Shown here: piece after piece, positions 3,410 through 37,285 of the stretch | Layout of the letters: each line of letters begins with the position of its first letter | Numbering within the stretch: the stretch's first letter is position 1 | Source: Candidatus Omnitrophota bacterium | GTDB lineage: Bacteria; Omnitrophota; Gorgyraeia; Duberdicusellales; 4484-171 | Assembly (NCBI GenBank): GCA_043815185.1 | Contig: JBDRJF010000001.1 | Span: 89,690-153,689, forward strand | Length of the DNA stretch: 64,000 nucleotides | Direction: 5' to 3' | The notes under the pieces: generated by a model | Seen by the model: the letters and a program-made list of their open reading frames with translations, nothing else | What the model was told of the DNA's origin: nothing | The model's database searches: none | Made by a program: the position numbers and the translations under genes

Positions 3410-4373
3410 TGATTGCTTTATTAAGCTCTTTTTTATTTACGGTGGCTGCTCCCAATTTACCGACTACAATCCCGGCAGCCAAATTAGCAATTATTGCTGC
3501 CTCATTATAAGTGGCCCCGGAAGCTAAACCTAAAGTAAAAACAGCAATTACCGTATCGCCGGCTCCGCTTACGTCAAAAACCTCTAAAGCTGCTGTGGGT
3601 ATATGATAGTGTTCCTTACCGGAAAATAGCAGCATTCCGTCCTCGCCTAAAGTTATCAGCAGCGCTTTAGGGTTTAATTTCTTCATAATTATTTTGCCCA
3701 AGAAAGGTAACTGATTTTTATTTCTTATCTTGATATTTGCTGCCACCTGAGCTTCTTGCAGGTTAGGGGTAAGAGCAGTTACGTCTTCATAATAACTAAA
3801 GTGTTCTTCTTTGGGGTCAACGGTAATTATTTTCTTTTTCTTGCGGCACAAACCTACTAACTTTTCTAACAGTAGAGGATTTATTACCCCTTTACCGTAA
3901 TCTTCGACAATTACCGCATCAAAATTATCTAGGCTCTTCTTGATTTTACTAAGAATCAAGCGGTTTATACTAGCCGCAAGAAATTCCAATGATTCCCAAT
4001 CAACCCTTAACATTTGCTGACGATGGGCAATTATTCTTGTTTTTAAAGTCGTTGGCCGCTGGTCATCTTTAACAATTAAATCAGTGCAAATGCCGCTATC
4101 ATTGATAAGCGAAAACAAACTTTCACCAAAATGATCTTTGCCAATGACTCCGCAAAGGCTTACCTTAGCACCTAAAGCACTAAGGTTTAATCCTACATTG
4201 GCTGCCCCGCCGGGGACAAACTTCTCCTTGTTGGCCCAAACTACCGGAACCGGAGCTTCCGGCGAAACCCGCTCTACCGCTCCAAAAATATGGTGGTCAA
4301 GGATTAAATCCCCGATCACCAGGATATTCTTGCCTCTAAAACGGGAAACAATATTCTTGAGCTTCTCTTTCAT
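3399..4373 (-). CDS. rfaE: D-glycero-beta-D-manno-heptose-7-phosphate kinase (RfaE domain I type, PfkB family)
   Basis: ILVIGDLILDHHIFGAVERVSPEAPVPVV and the C-terminal DVSGAGDT PfkB motif. Only the kinase domain is present. Confidence 0.75.
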   Translation of the reverse strand: MKEKLKNIVSRFRGKNILVIGDLILDHHIFGAVERVSPEAPVPVVWANKEKFVPGGAANVGLNLSALGAKVSLCGVIGKDHFGESLFSLINDSGICTDLIVKDDQRPTTLKTRIIAHRQQMLRVDWESLEFLAASINRLILSKIKKSLDNFDAVIVEDYGKGVINPLLLEKLVGLCRKKKKIITVDPKEEHFSYYEDVTALTPNLQEAQVAANIKIRNKNQLPFLGKIIMKKLNPKALLITLGEDGMLLFSGKEHYHIPTAALEVFDVSGAGDTVIAVFTLGLASGATYNEAAIIANLAAGIVVGKLGAATVNKKELNKAINGE

Positions 4374-7039: not shown

Positions 7040-8950
7040 TTAGTAGAGTTTTTCGATCTTGGTCTGGGGAAAGTAGTGGTTAATTATCTGATGATAATTA
7101 TAACCATTGTCGGCCATGCCCACTGCCCCATCCTGACACATACCGGCTCCGTGGCCAAATCCTGCTCCCCATAAAAAAAGCATTGAAGACTGGCCATCAG
7201 GAGATAATTTCCTTTCCAGCTTAAAAGCACTGCTCCTTAAGCGGTCAAAGTAATTTCTTATGGTTAAACTCCCCTTTAAATCTTTACTGCCACTGGAGGT
7301 AATGATTTCGATCTCGTTATAACGAAAACAATCTCCTCTCTTCTTGGGAAGAACAGCTTTTAAAGCATTGATTTCATACCCAAAGGCAATCAAAAAATCT
7401 TCTTGATCATAGACCCTTTGCCAGCGAAATTTACTGCGGCTATTTTTAAAACAAAAACTTATCTCCGGGCTATCAAACCAACGCTCCTGGCTATAGGCTG
7501 AATCGGGAATCTCTAAATTAAGTGTATCGCGCTTATTGACCAAATAGTCGCTCCGGCCAAAGACATCGGCCGCTAAACATCCGCCGCAATTAGCATGGAA
7601 AAGCGCTTCTATGGGATTATCTTGATAAACAATAATTTCACCTCTAGTATCTTTAATTGCCGCCTCAGTAGCTAAAACTTCGGCTGATATTCCCTGATAA
7701 ACCTGGCAATGCACCTGGGGGCAAAAATCAAAACCTTCATTTTTATGCCGCCCGAGGTTCCGATAGGCAAAAGTCCGCGCTGCCACAGCCTGGGCCCTGA
7801 GTGCTTGGGGATGGGCCTTAGCCGAAATTTCAGCTGATAAAACTCCGTAGAGGTATTCTTCGATTGTTAAGCTATTAATTAAGTTCAAAGCCCCATTGTT
7901 TATAACTACCTCTAGATCGCCGCGGTAGGCCCGATCAGCTTCAGTATACCAAAAGTCACCCTTACCAAAAATAAGATCTAAGACGTAAAATGATGATTTT
8001 CCTTCTTGCGAATCTTGAGCCACGATTTTGAGCGGGCCGCTAAAAGATGCGTATTTGCCTCCCTGTTCATAGTCACTTAAGACTATTTCCTCACCGCTGA
8101 CAATAAGGGTATAAAGTTTATTGGCCCTGGCCGGGAAAGAAACATCGGCACTGCTAATTAAGAATTTACTTCCGCAAAAAAAAGAAAACTTATTTAAATC
8201 TCTAGCTAGGCCGACTCTGACTAAAGGAATGTTTTCTTCCTGAAGGTAAACAGCTAGTTTAACTTTTTTCCTCTTGGCTTGCTGCTTTTCCTTTTGAGCC
8301 CTAAAGAAATCCTCACCTAAGCTCTGCTTCAAGGCCTTGAACTTTTTCTGAATTATTCCAACCTCGGGATAAAAATTTATTGCCTTCGAGAACAGCTTAT
8401 AAGCATCCTGATCTGCACCTTGCTCATAAAGGCACTGGCCCAAATAGTAATAAGCTAACCTTATACTGGAATCAAACTTAATCAGGGAGGAAAAATACTG
8501 GGCAGCTTTTTTATACTCGCCATTCCTACGGTAAATCTTTCCTAAACGAAAGTAAGCGATAGTATTGGGTTCTAACTTTAAGGATTTTGTGTAATTAGCT
8601 ATTGCCAGAGCCTCTTTACCTAAGTCTTCATAGATTAAACCGAGATAAAGAAAGTCCGGCCAACCTTTATCCTTCAGATTCTTAAAACTAATCAAGGCTT
8701 GCCTGCTTCTTCCGTTAAGAAATTCCAATTTTCCCCGGTATCGCAGCAGCTGAGGATTCTTGCTAAAAACCCTGGCCTTATTTAAAACATCAATAGCTTT
8801 AGCGTATTCCCCTGATTCTTTAAACAAAGCGGCAATGTCCAAGTAATCCTCAAGCGCTGTTTCTTTGCTCTGATGCGATAAGGATTTTGCCAATGAATTT
8901 GGCGGGAAGAATAATAACCCGGAGATTAAGAGTAAAATCAGGAATCGCAT
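7040..8950 (-). CDS. secreted TPR-repeat / SpoIID-LytB domain protein
   Basis: Signal peptide MRFLILLLISGLLFFPPNSLA, followed by TPR repeats across roughly aa 40-200. The C-terminal half has SpoIID motifs (RTFAYRN, HCQVYQG, HANCGG, GHGAGMCQDGA). Confidence 0.8.
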   Translation of the reverse strand: MRFLILLLISGLLFFPPNSLAKSLSHQSKETALEDYLDIAALFKESGEYAKAIDVLNKARVFSKNPQLLRYRGKLEFLNGRSRQALISFKNLKDKGWPDFLYLGLIYEDLGKEALAIANYTKSLKLEPNTIAYFRLGKIYRRNGEYKKAAQYFSSLIKFDSSIRLAYYYLGQCLYEQGADQDAYKLFSKAINFYPEVGIIQKKFKALKQSLGEDFFRAQKEKQQAKRKKVKLAVYLQEENIPLVRVGLARDLNKFSFFCGSKFLISSADVSFPARANKLYTLIVSGEEIVLSDYEQGGKYASFSGPLKIVAQDSQEGKSSFYVLDLIFGKGDFWYTEADRAYRGDLEVVINNGALNLINSLTIEEYLYGVLSAEISAKAHPQALRAQAVAARTFAYRNLGRHKNEGFDFCPQVHCQVYQGISAEVLATEAAIKDTRGEIIVYQDNPIEALFHANCGGCLAADVFGRSDYLVNKRDTLNLEIPDSAYSQERWFDSPEISFCFKNSRSKFRWQRVYDQEDFLIAFGYEINALKAVLPKKRGDCFRYNEIEIITSSGSKDLKGSLTIRNYFDRLRSSAFKLERKLSPDGQSSMLFLWGAGFGHGAGMCQDGAVGMADNGYNYHQIINHYFPQTKIEKLY

Positions 8951-32047: not shown

Positions 32048-35000
32048 TTACACTATTTCTCTATGATACTCCTGAAGAGATTTTAGTGAGATTTTCTTGT
32101 TCTTAAGAGCTTCTATTCCTTCAAGACTGGCGGAAGCCGCAGCCATAGAGGTAATATAAGGAACCTTCTGTTGTATGGCCATAATACGGATATAACTATC
32201 ATCAGTCTTGCTATCCCTTCCCACCGGTGTATTTATGATAATGTGAATGTCTCCGTTTTTAATTGCATCAGCAAGGTTAGGTCTTCCTTCATGAAGCTTC
32301 TTCACCTCTGTATTATTTATTCCGTTTTCCTTAAGAAAGCGGCTAGTTCCTATTGTAGCATAGATATTAAACCCGAGTTTGCTAAACTCTTTGGCTATGT
32401 TAAGTAACTCCGGTTTGTCTTTGTCGGTTACGGTAAGCAAAGCATTTCCCTCTATAGGAAGCTTTAAGTTAGCTGCTGCTTGAGCTTTATAAAAAGCAAT
32501 CCCAAAGGTATCGCCGATTCCCATCACCTCTCCGGTAGCCCTCATCTCAGGGCCAAGTAAAGGGTCTACTTCCGGAAACATATTAAAGGGGAAAACTGCC
32601 TCTTTAACTCCTACGTGAGAAATCTTACGGGGCTTCTGAAGCTCGGGAAAATCTTTTATCTTTTTGCCCACCATTAATTGAGTTGCTATCCGTGCTATGG
32701 AGAGTCCCATGACTTTTGAAACTAACGGTACCGTCCGAGATGCCCGAGGATTAGCTTCCAGAACATATACTTTATCATCACAGATAGCGTACTGGATATT
32801 CATCAATCCAACAACCTTAAGTTCCTTTGCTATTTGAACTGTGTACTTCTTAATAAGCTTTAGATGCTCCTCTTTTATGGTTCTGGTGGGAATCGCACAA
32901 GCAGAATCGCCGGAGTGGACACCGGCAAGTTCTATATGTTCCATCACCGCTGCAACATATACATCCTCTCCGTCAGAAAGAGCATCGACTTCTGCCTCAA
33001 CAGCATGTTCCAGGAATCTGTCAATAAGCATAGGAAAATCGGGGCTCACTTTGATTGCTTCCTGAGCATACTTTTCTAGCATCGTCTGATTATAAACAAT
33101 TTCCATACCCCTGCCTCCCAAAACAAAAGAAGGGCGTACCATAAGCGGGTATCCGATCTTATTGGCAATTTTTATCGCCTCATCTAAAGAACGGGCTGTA
33201 CCGCTCTCGGGCTGGGGAATATCCAGGGCAATCAAGCTTTGCCTAAAATATTCTCGATCTTCGGCTAAACGAATACTTTCCGGCGAAGTGCCGATAATTT
33301 TTAAACCGTTATCTTTCAACTCCTGAGCTATATTCAAAGGAGTTTGGCCGCCAAACTGGACAATAACTCCTTCGGGCTTTTCTTTTTCATAGATAGTTAA
33401 CACATCTTCTACGGTCAAAGGTTCAAAATAGAGTTTGTTAGAAGTATCATAATCAGTAGATACTGTCTCAGGGTTACAATTTATCATAATTGATTCATAG
33501 CCTTCATCCCGCAGGGCAAAAGCAGCATGAACACAGGTATAATCAAACTCTATTCCCTGACCGATCCGGTTAGGTCCTCCGCCTAAAATTAATATTTTCT
33601 TATTTGGCGATACCGACACCTTATCTTCTCCGATATAGGTTGAATAATAGTAAGCGGCATTTTCTACTCCGCTAACCGGAACAACATCGTAACGACCGTT
33701 CTTCTTAAGCCTAATTCTCCTTTCTCTTACTTCTTTCTCCTTCAGCTTAAAAAGCTGAGCTAAATACTTATCTGAGAATCCCAGCTCTTTTGCCTTAATC
33801 AGCTCTCCATCAGCTAAATCTTTCCATTTATTTTTAATTATCGCTTCTTCGAAATCGACAAGCTCCTTCATCTCCCGAATAAACCAAGGGTGGATATAGG
33901 TAACTTTATGAAGCTCCTCAACAGAAATACCTCTGCGTAAAGCTTCATAAATTAAGAATATTCGCTCACTGGAGGGAGCGCTTAACTTGCCTTTTAACTT
34001 GGACAGAGGAAAAGCTTTGAATTCTTCAACACCTAAACCGTACCGGCCTATTTCCAAAGAACGAATAGCTTTCTGAAAAGCCTCTTTGAATGTCTTACCG
34101 ATACTCATTACCTCACCAACAGCCTTCATCTGGGTTCCTAAAATATCCTTGGCTTGAGGAAACTTCTCAAAGGCCCAGCGGGCAAATTTAACAACCACAT
34201 AATCACCGCTAGGTTCATACTTCTCCAAAGTCCCTTCTTTCCAGTAAGGAATCTCATCCATTGTTAGACCGGCAGCTAACTTTGTTGAAATACGGGCTAT
34301 CGGAAAGCCGGTTGCTTTGGAAGCAAGAGCTGAAGAACGCGATGTTCTGGGGTTAATTTCGATAACTACTATTCGATCATCCTTAGGGTTGTGAGCAAAC
34401 TGAATATTTGTTCCGCCAACAACCCCGATTGCATCAACTATCTTGTAGGAATATTCCTGCATTTTATCCTGTAACTCTTTTTTTACGGTAAGCATCGGGG
34501 CAGAACAAAAGCTATCTCCGGTATGAACACCCATAGCATCAATATTTTCGATAAAGCATACGGTAATTTTCTGATTTTTATGATCCCGTACCACTTCCAG
34601 TTCTAATTCTTCCCAGCCGATAACTGCTTCTTCAACTAGAACTTGATGAACAAGACTTGCCGCTAAGCCACGAGTTACAATAATCCTTAATTCCTCTACA
34701 TTGTAAGCAATTCCTCCTCCGGTTCCGCCCATGGTGTAAGCCGGCCTTAATACCACCGGGTAGCCTATCTTCTGGGCTATAGCCTCAGCGGCTTCAACCG
34801 AATGGCTAATTTCCGATTCAGGAAGAGGAATTCCTAATTTCTTCATTGTCTCTTTAAAAATCAGACGATCTTCCCCGCGTTCAATAGCATCAACTTTAAC
34901 CCCGATAATTTTAACCTCGTATTTGGCTAAAATTCCTGCTTTATGAAGACTGGAGGAAAGATTAAGGCCGGTTTGCCCGCCTAAATTAGGCAGCAGAGCA

Positions 35001-35251
35001 TCGGGACGTTCCCGCTTAATAATGGCCTCTAAGCTTTCGATAGTGAGCGGCTCAATATAAGTTTTATCAGCCATACCGGGGTCGGTCATAATCGTTGCCG
35101 GGTTGGAATTAACCAAAACAACTTCATAGCCTTCTTCTTTTAAAGCCTTGCAGGCTTGAGTACCAGAATAATCAAATTCACAGGCTTGCCCGATAATTAT
35201 CGGCCCGGAACCAATAATTAAAACTTTTTTAATATCCTCATATCGCGGCAT
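32048..35251 (-). CDS. carB: carbamoyl-phosphate synthase large subunit
   Basis: 1067 aa with duplicated ATP-grasp halves. N-terminus VLIIGSGPIIIGQACEFDYSG; second half ILILGGGPNRIGQGIEFDY. Confidence 0.95.
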   Translation of the reverse strand: MPRYEDIKKVLIIGSGPIIIGQACEFDYSGTQACKALKEEGYEVVLVNSNPATIMTDPGMADKTYIEPLTIESLEAIIKRERPDALLPNLGGQTGLNLSSSLHKAGILAKYEVKIIGVKVDAIERGEDRLIFKETMKKLGIPLPESEISHSVEAAEAIAQKIGYPVVLRPAYTMGGTGGGIAYNVEELRIIVTRGLAASLVHQVLVEEAVIGWEELELEVVRDHKNQKITVCFIENIDAMGVHTGDSFCSAPMLTVKKELQDKMQEYSYKIVDAIGVVGGTNIQFAHNPKDDRIVVIEINPRTSRSSALASKATGFPIARISTKLAAGLTMDEIPYWKEGTLEKYEPSGDYVVVKFARWAFEKFPQAKDILGTQMKAVGEVMSIGKTFKEAFQKAIRSLEIGRYGLGVEEFKAFPLSKLKGKLSAPSSERIFLIYEALRRGISVEELHKVTYIHPWFIREMKELVDFEEAIIKNKWKDLADGELIKAKELGFSDKYLAQLFKLKEKEVRERRIRLKKNGRYDVVPVSGVENAAYYYSTYIGEDKVSVSPNKKILILGGGPNRIGQGIEFDYTCVHAAFALRDEGYESIMINCNPETVSTDYDTSNKLYFEPLTVEDVLTIYEKEKPEGVIVQFGGQTPLNIAQELKDNGLKIIGTSPESIRLAEDREYFRQSLIALDIPQPESGTARSLDEAIKIANKIGYPLMVRPSFVLGGRGMEIVYNQTMLEKYAQEAIKVSPDFPMLIDRFLEHAVEAEVDALSDGEDVYVAAVMEHIELAGVHSGDSACAIPTRTIKEEHLKLIKKYTVQIAKELKVVGLMNIQYAICDDKVYVLEANPRASRTVPLVSKVMGLSIARIATQLMVGKKIKDFPELQKPRKISHVGVKEAVFPFNMFPEVDPLLGPEMRATGEVMGIGDTFGIAFYKAQAAANLKLPIEGNALLTVTDKDKPELLNIAKEFSKLGFNIYATIGTSRFLKENGINNTEVKKLHEGRPNLADAIKNGDIHIIINTPVGRDSKTDDSYIRIMAIQQKVPYITSMAAASASLEGIEALKNKKISLKSLQEYHREIV

Positions 35252-35275
35252 AAATAATCCTCCTTTACTTACTGC

Positions 35276-35340
35276 TCCAAAAATAGAAAAAGCGCCCCTT
35301 CTACATCATTGGTTTAGAAAGGACGCCATCATCCACATTG
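35276..35340 (-). promoter_or_regulatory. carB leader: conserved hairpin plus U-tract motif (copy Y)
   Basis: Minus strand: GGATGATGGCGTCCTTTCTAAACCAATGATGTAGAAGGGGCGCTTTTTCTATTTTTGG. The 12-bp stem is complete only on the minus-strand RNA (two G-U pairs). A related copy lies at 41041..41101. Confidence 0.6.
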
Positions 35341-35346
35341 GGATTG

Positions 35347-35375
35347 ATTATCCGATAAATTTGGCTAATAGTCAA
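35347..35375 (-). promoter_or_regulatory. sigma70-like promoter TTGACT-17-GATAAT for carB
   Basis: The minus strand reads TTGACTattagccaaatttatcgGATAAT, with an A/T-rich stretch upstream. Confidence 0.5.
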
Positions 35376-35468
35376 GAAAAAAAATAACCTTTTTTTTATC
35401 TAAAAAATCTTAAAAAAGCTAATATTTATAGGCATTCTTGCATGGTGTAAAAAAAAATAAAAAACTAC

Positions 35469-35497
35469 TTGACAAGTGTAAAGTAATAGTTTACACT
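35469..35497 (+). promoter_or_regulatory. sigma70-like promoter TTGACA-17-TACACT for the HTH-glnA gene
   Basis: TTGACAagtgtaaagtaatagttTACACT. It is overlapped by the inverted repeat at 35472..35500. Confidence 0.45.
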
Positions 35498-35500
35498 TGT
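35472..35500. promoter_or_regulatory. perfect 11-bp inverted repeat ACAAGTGTAAA-N7-TTTACACTTGT (candidate operator)
   Basis: Read directly. It spans the -35/-10 spacer and the -10 of the glnA promoter. Confidence 0.6.
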
Positions 35501-35512
35501 AATGTAGAATGA

Positions 35513-35666
35513 AGCTTAGGTTTACAGAACAAAGTGAAAGTAAACCTTTAGCTGAATTCACCCGAAACATTCTTTAAAAATTTCATAGAAATTTTTAAAG
35601 TATTTAGATGTTTCGGGATAATTCGCACTTATCACTTATGTTCACTTCGTTCCGTAAGTGATGTGC
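35513..35666 (+). promoter_or_regulatory. structured 5' UTR of HTH-glnA (three adjacent hairpins)
   Basis: P1 at 35513..35553 (AGCTtAGGTTTAC/GTAAACCTttAGCT). P2 at 35554..35624 (GAATT, CCCGAAACA and a 12-bp CTTTAAAAATTT stem). P3 at 35625..35666 (GCACttATCACTTA/TAAGTGATGTGC). The Shine-Dalgarno sequence is left unpaired. Confidence 0.45.
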
Positions 35667-35683
35667 TCATTAAAGGAGGAAAA

Positions 35684-37219
35684 ATGGAACAGGAATATTT
35701 AAGCCCGACTCAAGCCGCTAAAATTCTAAAAATATCCCGTCAAGCAGTTATTGAACGCATAAAACATGGAGCCCTTTACGCTGAGCGGGTGGGAAAACGA
35801 TATATAATCCCCCGGGGTGAACTTCCCACCGAAGATGCTCTCTTAAAAGATCGGAAAACCAAAACAAACATTTCCTTGGAGAGTAAGAAGAGCCGGAAGG
35901 ATATGATAAGAAAAGTTTTAGAAAAGGTGCATCGGGAAAATATAAAGACCATACAGCTCTGGTTTGTGGATATCTTAGGAACCTTAAAATGCGTTTCGAT
36001 TACCCAAAGAGAATTAAAAGATGCTTTAGGCCATGGCAAGGGGTTTGACGGTTCTTCTGTTACCGGTTTTGCCGAAGCTGAAGAAAGTGATATTGTTGCT
36101 TTGCCAGATCCTGCCACTTTTAAAGTCTTGCCTTGGACGATTGAAACCGGTCCTATTGCCAGAATGCTCTGCGATATACTCAGCCCTGATTTTACCCCTT
36201 ATGCTGGTGATAGCCGCTATGTTCTTAAAAGAGCCTTGGCCCGGGCAAAGAAGTTAGGCTTTACTTTCTATGTCGGACCAGAGTTAGAATACTTTTACTT
36301 TAAGTCTGCTCGAAAACCAGAAATTATAGACGAAGGTTCTTACTTTGAGCTAATACCCAACGATTTAGCCAATACCTTAAGAAATAAAACCGTAAAAGTC
36401 TTAGAAGAGATGGGTATACCGATGGAGGCAACCCACCATGAAGTTGCCCCTTCACAACATGAAATTGACCTAAAATATAACGATGCTCTTACTATGGCTG
36501 ACAACGTAATAACTTGTAAATATGTGATCAAGGAAATTGCCCAACAGAATGGCGTCTATGCTACTTTTATGCCCAAACCCCTCTTTGGAGTGAATGGTTC
36601 AGGAATGCATGTTCACCAATCGTTGTTTAAGGGCAGCCAAAATTCTTTCTTTGATAAAAAAGACAAGTATCACCTTTCATCCGTGGCCAAAGGATTCATT
36701 GCTGGTGAACTAAAGCATGCCCGGGAAATTTCCTCTCTAACTGCTCAGTGGGTAAATTCCTATAAACGTCTGGTTTCCGGGTATGAAGCGCCGGTATATG
36801 CTTCCTGGGCTCAAAAAAACCGTACTGCTCTGCTGCGAGTTCCGGTATACCGGCCGAGAAACGAAAAAGCAACCCGGGTAGAATTACGCTGCCCTGACCC
36901 CGCTTGCAACCCCTACTTAGCCTTTGCCGTAATGCTAGCAGCCGGGTTGGAAGGTGTAGAAAAGAAATATCAGCTTCCTCCTGCTGTTGAACCTAATATC
37001 TACCGGATGGCTATGGAAGAAAGAGAACGAAGGGGGCTTACCTCACTTCCCGGGAATCTTTTTGAAGCCATTATTGAAACTGAAAAAAGTACCTTTGTGC
37101 GGGAAACTTTGGGAGCCCACATCTTCAACAGATTCTTGTTCAATAAAAAGAAAGAATGGGAAGATTACCGGATCCAGATTACTGAACATGAAATTAAGAA
37201 ATACCTTCCCCTGCTCTAG
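35684..37219 (+). CDS. glnA: type I glutamine synthetase with N-terminal excisionase/MerR-type HTH domain
   Basis: ATG 35684 follows an AAGGAGG Shine-Dalgarno sequence (the track start GTG 35663 is rejected). Residues 4-48 (EYLSPTQAAKILKISRQAVIERIKHGALYAERVGKRYIIPRGEL) look like HTH_17. From about aa 85 it is a full GS (QLWFVDILG, GSGMHVHQS, NRTALLRVP). Confidence 0.85.
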   Translation: MEQEYLSPTQAAKILKISRQAVIERIKHGALYAERVGKRYIIPRGELPTEDALLKDRKTKTNISLESKKSRKDMIRKVLEKVHRENIKTIQLWFVDILGTLKCVSITQRELKDALGHGKGFDGSSVTGFAEAEESDIVALPDPATFKVLPWTIETGPIARMLCDILSPDFTPYAGDSRYVLKRALARAKKLGFTFYVGPELEYFYFKSARKPEIIDEGSYFELIPNDLANTLRNKTVKVLEEMGIPMEATHHEVAPSQHEIDLKYNDALTMADNVITCKYVIKEIAQQNGVYATFMPKPLFGVNGSGMHVHQSLFKGSQNSFFDKKDKYHLSSVAKGFIAGELKHAREISSLTAQWVNSYKRLVSGYEAPVYASWAQKNRTALLRVPVYRPRNEKATRVELRCPDPACNPYLAFAVMLAAGLEGVEKKYQLPPAVEPNIYRMAMEERERRGLTSLPGNLFEAIIETEKSTFVRETLGAHIFNRFLFNKKKEWEDYRIQITEHEIKKYLPLL

Positions 37220-37247: not shown

Positions 37248-37285
37248 AAAAAGGCGCCTCCTCAAAACCGGAGGCGCCTTTTATT
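37248..37285. terminator. bidirectional intrinsic terminator between convergent glnA and gdhA
   Basis: aaaaaGGCGCCTCC-tcaaaacc-GGAGGCGCCttttatt. It has an A-run upstream and a T-run downstream. Confidence 0.8.

Follow-up and report, generated by a model that had tools for sequence, protein, structure and literature searches.

Paired palindromes on the promoter of a glutamine synthetase gene with a fused helix-turn-helix domain: a candidate for direct autoregulation in Omnitrophota

Glutamine synthetase (GS) is among the most studied of all regulated enzymes, and in Gram-positive bacteria it is linked to transcription via separate partners, GlnR and TnrA. What is to be made of a GS gene whose own product carries a helix-turn-helix (HTH) domain and whose promoter is covered by a palindrome? 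Such a locus is found in a stretch of 64,000 nucleotides from a Candidatus Omnitrophota genome, referred to here as the window. In it, glnA (35684-37219, plus strand, ribosome-binding site AAGGAGG just upstream) encodes a fusion protein of 511 residues. The gene carB (32048-35251, minus strand) is divergent from glnA, and gdhA and a gltD-like gene lie downstream in convergent orientation. The comparison presented here covers these 64 kb and about 9.5 kb from each relative.

The fusion of an HTH to the downstream synthetase, which an earlier note on this DNA had read from its letters, is confirmed by Pfam: a single open reading frame contains HTH_17 (30.1 bits, cut-off 27), Gln-synt_N (86 bits) and Gln-synt_C (418 bits). 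The HTH_17 domain is a winged HTH at the N-terminus, covering residues 5-47 (35696-35824, plus strand), and no MerR-family Pfam model matches it at E <= 0.01. The same architecture occurs in nearly all of the best 120 homologues listed (69-100% identity), among which an entry from a Candidatus Omnitrophota MAG is identical in sequence. Across relatives in this identity range K13, R19, Q20, G37 and Y40 of the HTH are invariant together with the GS core. The linker between HTH and GS, of 20-35 residues, varies freely, and residues ~44-64 are predicted to be disordered. An AlphaFold model of residues 1-94, built with 37 sequences, is a winged helix of beta-helix-helix-beta-beta order, in which residues 5-6, 34-36 and 39-43 form the strands and residues 8-15 and 19-27 the helices. 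Residues 11-40 reach a pLDDT of about 85; the linker at 54-64 is of low confidence, and a helix at 65-84 runs into the synthetase. Its best Foldseek matches, weak ones (E about 0.01; target-normalised TM about 0.78), are BldC (6ama), Pukovnik Xis (4j2n), RacA (5i44), RdfS and MerR-family proteins, and weaker ones include RbkR (5trd) and BirA (1hxd). By sequence, the HTH finds only marginal matches in the PDB (Pukovnik Xis, E 0.09). A side observation concerns the top matches of the HTH profile in a library of 1.8 billion proteins (P0121-P0133), which consist of 3-9 tandem HTH_17 repeats, typically four in about 240 residues.

The synthetase part is assigned by sequence to type I-alpha. Its best PDB matches are 8ufj, 8tfb and 8s59 (E about 1e-141), which we take to be GS of M. 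mazei, and the chains 4lnf, 4s0r and 7tf* match at E about 1e-130 over residues about 76-511 and presumably come from studies of B. subtilis and other Gram-positive GS with GlnR; E. coli/Salmonella-type chains match from about residue 217 only. The assignment of species to the codes draws in part on a published study (PMC10651883). Current annotation calls proteins of the fused kind no more than GS or 'beta-grasp domain-containing protein', which makes the architecture relevant for annotation. Full-text searches and a 2025 review of GS yielded no description of an HTH-GS fusion; enzyme-regulator fusions and GS-dependent repression are both known, and a GS with a fused DNA-binding domain is undescribed in the literature that we found.

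The promoter upstream of this gene contains the perfect 11-N7-11 palindrome ACAAGTGTAAA-gtaatag-TTTACACTTGT at 35472-35500. It had been claimed for 35469-35500, a start that adds the TTG of TTGACA. An imperfect extension reaches 35465-35507, with 21-nt arms that are 86% complementary. The pattern is single in the window even when up to three mismatches are allowed and has no match in 100 dinucleotide shuffles; it is not a product of chance. Perfect inverted repeats in general (arms >=11, spacer <=12) number five in the 64 kb, against a simulated mean of 0.33 and a maximum of 2 in 30 first-order Markov simulations; among the other four, two are terminator-like and one lies within the glnA leader. 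A consensus scan places TTGACA at 35469-35474 and TACACT at 35492-35497, separated by a 17-nt spacer (10 of 12 matches), so that the proposed overlap of the palindrome with -35 box, spacer and -10 box holds. The inner half-sites TGTAA and TTACA are 9 nt apart in the window, as had been stated.

The 29-bp perfect palindrome is the inner part of two adjacent sites, running from position 4 of the first to position 11 of the second. The putative operator O1, TTGACAAGTGTAAA (35469-35482), is a 14-bp near-palindrome whose left half is the -35 hexamer, and O2, TTTACACTTGTAAT (35490-35503), includes the -10 hexamer; their centres are 21 bp apart in the window.

Is this arrangement peculiar to one genome? 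Similar palindromes recur upstream of fused GS genes, with TTKACA-N2-TGTMAA (14 bp) as the constant unit. Scanning one genome per GTDB species gave 80 loci. The fused gene is present in full length at 57 of them; at the other 23 the GS begins near query residue 63-91 and is devoid of the HTH. When sites with at most one mismatch are counted within 300 nt upstream, at least one is present at 54 of the 56 fused loci with at least 120 nt of upstream sequence, and 39 loci have two or more. Sites are found at none of 20 unfused GS genes, nine of which are labelled Omnitrophota (Fisher p = 2e-16, without correction for phylogeny). The earlier note had made conservation in orthologous glnA upstream regions a touchstone for its palindrome, and the element is indeed kept there, in exclusive association with the fused genes. 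Because the fused genes form one clade, this co-occurrence of fusion and operator is confounded by phylogeny. The background is low, with four matches in 411 kb of flanking DNA (about 0.01 per kb); the background matches at loci L022 and L036 and the extra sites at L042 and L054 lie inside coding regions. At the two fused loci that have no site, the upstream sequence available is short, 143 nt and 223 nt, and in the latter this stretch is occupied by a long leader. Locus L020 has a fused glnA with variant sites and a second, unfused GS, part of an amtB-glnK-GS2 cluster, that has none. No separate HTH of this type was found near unfused GS genes. About 50 orthologous promoters have TTGACA-NN-TGTAAA as site 1, and the information content amounts to 1.1-2.0 bits at all 12 specified positions, in both halves of both sites.

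The spacing of the sites is informative as well. Within a site the N2 spacing is invariant, and between sites it is either 21 bp or 26-28 bp. In class A, comprising 20 promoters including that of the window, O1 and O2 start 21 bp from each other, and O2 contains the -10 box (TACAAT or TACACT). In class B, with 28 promoters, 26-28 bp separate the sites and an extended -10 box, TGnTATACT, lies between them; O2, often the perfect CTTTACAAnTGTAAAG, a 16-bp palindrome at +1, starts at the last base of the -10 box and covers the start region. Judged by these positions, both layouts would occlude the promoter. N2 stays fixed whatever the distance from one site to the next, and the 14-mer is therefore the functional unit rather than TGTAA-N9-TTACA. 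The -35 and -10 hexamers are kept in all relatives, with TGnTATACT in class B, and a sigma-70-type promoter is predicted from them, which should be a strong one.

Class A is further marked by flanking half-sites. In the window, TGTAAA occurs at 35445-35450, 24 nt 5' of the start of O1, and TTTACA at 35521-35526, 31 nt 3' of where O2 begins, early in the transcribed region. Exact copies of the former are found at -22 to -24 of O1 in 10 of 20 class-A promoters and, at scattered positions, in two of 28 class-B promoters; exact copies of the latter lie at +31 or +32 of O2 in 13 of 20 and 0 of 28, respectively. Together with O1 and O2, the flanking half-sites form an array of ~82 bp that is symmetric about 35486. 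At four loci a third operator-like site, TTGACAACTGTAAA or TTGACAAATGTAAA, occurs at ~-190, 186-200 nt upstream of glnA (L042 at ~3798, L047, L054 at ~3803, and L065). At L042 and L054 it is located inside the 3' end of an upstream gene of 377 residues. It could be an auxiliary operator or belong to a second promoter.

Which protein would occupy these sites? With a probability of roughly 0.65, we consider the HTH-GS itself the most likely binder, repressing its own glnA through O1 and O2 over the -35 and -10 boxes. Enzymes of the GS-I type are large oligomers, and such an oligomer would hold several HTH domains close together; that HTH-GS is a dodecamer is assumed from its homologues. Each 14-bp palindrome would be occupied by two HTH domains and the pair of operators by four. 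O1 and O2, two helical turns apart, would offer the same face of the DNA, and the class-A half-sites at about -24 and +31 might be contacted too. Occupancy of O1 and O2 would exclude RNA polymerase, by which GS would repress its own synthesis, possibly modulated through its catalytic or oligomeric state by glutamine, 2-oxoglutarate or ATP. The half-site centres are 8 bp apart, which is a tight fit for two HTH domains. A precedent is provided by RacA, a MerR-like winged HTH protein devoid of a dimerisation domain, of which two subunits sit on a 14-bp palindrome and touch only on the DNA; its DNA-binding domain superimposes on those of GlnR and TnrA (PMC4914108). RacA, BldC and excisionase-type winged helices are what the N-terminal model of HTH-GS resembles most in structure. 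These proteins work on their own, as small DNA organisers or as recombination directionality factors, whereas the HTH discussed here is tethered to an enzyme. BldC binds direct repeats in head-to-tail fashion (PMC5859096), whereas the sites described here are inverted repeats.

Enzymes with a fused DNA-binding domain are familiar from the trigger enzymes BirA, PutA and NadR. The archaeal RbkR is a bifunctional kinase and regulator (PMC5397151). As in these four, the enzyme and an N-terminal (winged) HTH share one polypeptide, here a 511-codon reading frame, and the operator, to which binding is predicted, lies at the promoter of the own pathway. The difference is that the enzyme is a GS, whose presumed oligomer would display a dozen DNA-binding domains instead of two.

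The other obvious comparison is the circuit of GlnR or TnrA with GS, as in the glnRA operon. The glnA promoter of B. subtilis has two adjacent palindromic operators, through which the gene is repressed. Two adjacent palindromic operators are also found on the glnA promoter here, O1 on the -35 and O2 on the -10/+1 region; the predicted binder is again a MerR-like winged HTH, and the GS is likewise of type I-alpha. In contrast to GlnR, a separate protein with a GS-binding C-tail, the HTH is covalently attached to the N-terminus of the synthetase and belongs to HTH_17 rather than MerR in Pfam. The operators are 14-bp TTKACA-N2-TGTMAA units instead of 17-bp TGTNA-N7-TNACA boxes. In the Bacillus-type system, GS in its feedback-inhibited form brings two GlnR monomers together as a dimer that binds DNA (PMC9249791), and the GS of M. 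mazei assembles into dodecamers in response to 2-oxoglutarate (PMC11957540, PMC10651883). Either principle could gate a tethered HTH. It is possible, and we suggest it only tentatively, that the Omnitrophota GS oligomer is a nitrogen-sensing repressor in which GlnR and GS are merged, bound to up to six half-sites between 35445 and 35526 (dyad at ~35486) in a manner gated by its state of catalysis or assembly, and that it would be the first GS to bind DNA directly. If true, HTH-GS and its phylum-wide operator would constitute the most direct feedback from enzyme to gene known for nitrogen assimilation, and a simple system, one protein and one 90-bp DNA, in which the state of an enzyme oligomer would be translated into promoter occupancy.

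Could a different protein read the operators? A separately encoded transcription factor of Omnitrophota might bind them, with the fused HTH acting otherwise or binding elsewhere, and we regard this as unlikely, though as the main rival. The link between HTH and site is not found directly, and covariation between the recognition helix and the operator, which would tie one to the other, is absent: no clean correspondence of helix variants and operator variants was seen across the loci. A candidate for it had been the combination of an SRQAVNDKI helix with the variant O2 TTGTCAATTGACAA at L012 and L020; it was dismissed, as L024 has a related variant O2 (TTGTCGATTGACAA) yet the standard helix.

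Double palindromes of a similar kind are also used elsewhere by TetR-type and other regulators. When metagenomes were scanned for the double site, 104 loci were returned, 16 of which precede a fused GS. At another four, a glnA-type promoter is cut short by a contig end or an IS110 insertion, and the remainder belong to unrelated systems (HEPN/MNT-like and HigB-like genes, and TetR with a central CG); the 104 loci added no member to the regulon. Because the double site thus occurs at TetR and toxin-antitoxin promoters too, the sequence itself does not identify an HTH_17 binder. In soil metagenomes, double palindromes of the form TTGACACGTGTAAAG-N-CTTTACACGTGT are found in promoters beside TetR-family regulators, AMP-ligase-like genes and conserved genes of ~150 residues (L082, L085, L089, L103, L111, L118, L133, L141 and others), an unrelated system with the same half-site shape. 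The tandem HTH_17 proteins mentioned above could also read arrays of half-sites; their recognition helix is SRVAV or SRIAV, as opposed to SRQAV in HTH-GS.

The gene neighbourhood argues against a separate regulator. The sites are confined to loci whose regulated gene carries the HTH, and no conserved gene for a regulator with a DNA-binding domain accompanies the locus. Among 58 loci, the upstream neighbours are GAF-ANTAR (16), LpxB (15), carB (9) and amtB (7), and the downstream neighbour is gdhA in 17. The commonest neighbour with a regulatory domain is GAF-ANTAR, which is RNA-binding and present at only 16 of the 58 loci. The position of the operators relative to glnA stays constant while the upstream neighbours vary. 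As an observation in its own right, the GAF-ANTAR gene, of the antiterminator type, is divergent from the fused glnA at these 16 loci and shares with it the intergenic region that contains the operators (L077 2991-3749 and L036 3128-3853, both on the minus strand, plus 14 further loci).

The same data bear on the reach of the operator. Co-regulation of the divergent carB had been proposed, as had a search for the palindrome upstream of other nitrogen genes. Neither is supported: carB is the upstream neighbour at just nine of the 58 loci, and in the related loci no separate sites lie upstream of neighbouring gdhA, gltD-like, amtB, DUF1846, carB, LpxB or other genes. In the 64-kb window, further copies of the operator amount to three one-mismatch matches, all inside open reading frames and, with 0.85 expected, compatible with chance. 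Within the window and the related loci no regulon beyond glnA was detected, which is another difference from GlnR and TnrA.

If HTH-GS is the binder, need it repress? It might activate or tune its promoter, for example by recruitment of polymerase or by promoter remodelling, and we judge this improbable. The domain is MerR-like in fold, and MerR proteins bind between -35 and -10, both of which speak for activation. Promoters activated by MerR have a spacer of 19-20 nt, however, and the spacer here is the optimal 17 nt; the near-consensus hexamers and the extended -10 box of class B should make the promoters strong unaided, and sites over -35 and -10/+1 are the classic positions of a repressor.

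Still less probable is that the palindrome represents a variant TnrA/GlnR box, TGTNA-N9-TNACA, read by a MerR protein of the GlnR/TnrA type, a kinship to which the resemblance of the inner half-sites had pointed in the earlier note. TGTAA and TTACA are present, the gene is glnA, and the fused HTH is related to GlnR and TnrA in fold class. The N9 geometry does not hold among the orthologues, though: the gap between inner half-sites is 9 nt in class A only and 15-16 nt in the 28 class-B promoters, and the invariant unit is TTKACA-N2-TGTMAA. The fused domain is HTH_17 without a MerR match at E <= 0.01, and no GlnR-like open reading frame lies beside glnA in the window, the HTH_17 of the GS being the sole HTH at the locus. 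The weakest explanation, that there is no dedicated binder and that the symmetry is a by-product of -35, -10 and UP-like elements or forms a DNA cruciform or RNA hairpin, can appeal to the AT-richness of the region and to TTGACA and TACAAT/TACACT being part of the sites, and is very hard to reconcile with TGTAAA after the -35 box and the class-B O2 CTTTACAAnTGTAAAG at +1, which match no promoter consensus yet are conserved like the hexamers, with O1 lying upstream of the transcription start, where it cannot be part of an RNA, and with the lack of symmetry in unfused GS promoters.

Repression by HTH-GS through O1 and O2 may not be the only control of this gene. Between the operators and the start codon lies a structured leader (35549-35687, plus strand), which consists of hairpin P2 (ACCC...GGG), AAUUCGC, hairpin P3 and GCUCAUUAAAGGAGG followed by ATG; the 5' leader of glnA in the window folds with z = -6.9. 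About 130 nt of it are absent from the closest relatives. The idea of a unique insertion was ruled out, as the element is recurrent. Its architecture, ACCC-hairpin-GGG, AAUUCGC, a second hairpin and GCUCAUURAAGGAGG-N5-8-AUG over about 110-150 nt, is found again in the glnA leaders of L011, L023, L077 and L166. It also occurs upstream of the gltB-like gene, the second GS and, in a weak form, amtB of L020, of an Rrf2 gene in L077, and of a tiny Cys-containing reading frame, MWTK[RK]YMLRA[VI]AHCKEGC, in L077 and L112. The copies are located at 2870-2990 in L011, 101-225 in L023, ~340-480 in L166 and 1093-1182 in L112; at 3882-4002 and, on the minus strand, 2301-2443 and 1942-2050 in L077; at 7264-7419, 789-904 and 2758-2830 in L020, all on the minus strand; and at 1795-1993 and 2071-2281 in L021.

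With a covariance model made from trimmed sequences, more copies are detected, some of them between convergent genes and many scoring on both strands. Over 18 matches, 89.6% of the cells pair, compared with 33-42% in slid controls, and 25 of the 29 pairs have changed on both sides; these figures come from an alignment fitted to the model, in which two-strand matches of one palindromic element are non-independent. Rfam yields nothing relevant to the palindrome or the leader, whether the whole window is searched at the gathering score or 35250-35720 at E <= 10, and this includes the glutamine riboswitches (glnA RNA and Downstream-peptide). The dual-hexaloop target of ANTAR proteins was a candidate explanation for the leader hairpins and was set aside, as their loops vary in size. 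The element could be a nitrogen-linked cis-regulatory RNA or a palindromic repeat element with a ribosome-binding site. Upstream of glnA, the second GS, the gltB-like gene and amtB, it may add a second, RNA-level layer of control. Within the leader, downstream of the operators, a promoter-like TTTAAA-17-GATAAT is seen at 35594-35622 (plus strand, 9 of 12 matches), which, if active, would bypass operator control.

Several minor features of the window and its relatives accompany these results. On the carB side, the leader at 35258-35330 (minus strand) contains a strong hairpin, GGCGUCCUUUCUA...UAGAAGGGGCGC, followed by UUUUUCUAUUUUU, just upstream of the carB ribosome-binding site. With a fold z of -2.9 it looks like an attenuator or terminator. 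A match to the PyrR site at 35285-35421 is weak and sub-threshold (21.7 bits versus a gathering score of 54). Some contigs labelled as a Methanosarcinales archaeon (L004, JAIWAR010000001.1) or as Planctomycetia carry the Omnitrophota type of fused GS together with its operator. Their GS has 81-96% protein identity, many of the records read 'uncultured Planctomycetia', and the labels are probably errors of binning or taxonomy. At L166 (249-1607) a class-A glnA promoter and the leader element lead, right at the start codon of glnA, into a transposase gene of the IS110 family, and glnA appears to have been disrupted by the insertion sequence. Finally, the intergenic region of the convergent glnA and gdhA contains a 13-bp perfect inverted repeat, AAAAGGCGCCTCC...GGAGGCGCCTTTT, at 37249-37282; it has A/T runs on both sides and is probably a bidirectional terminator.
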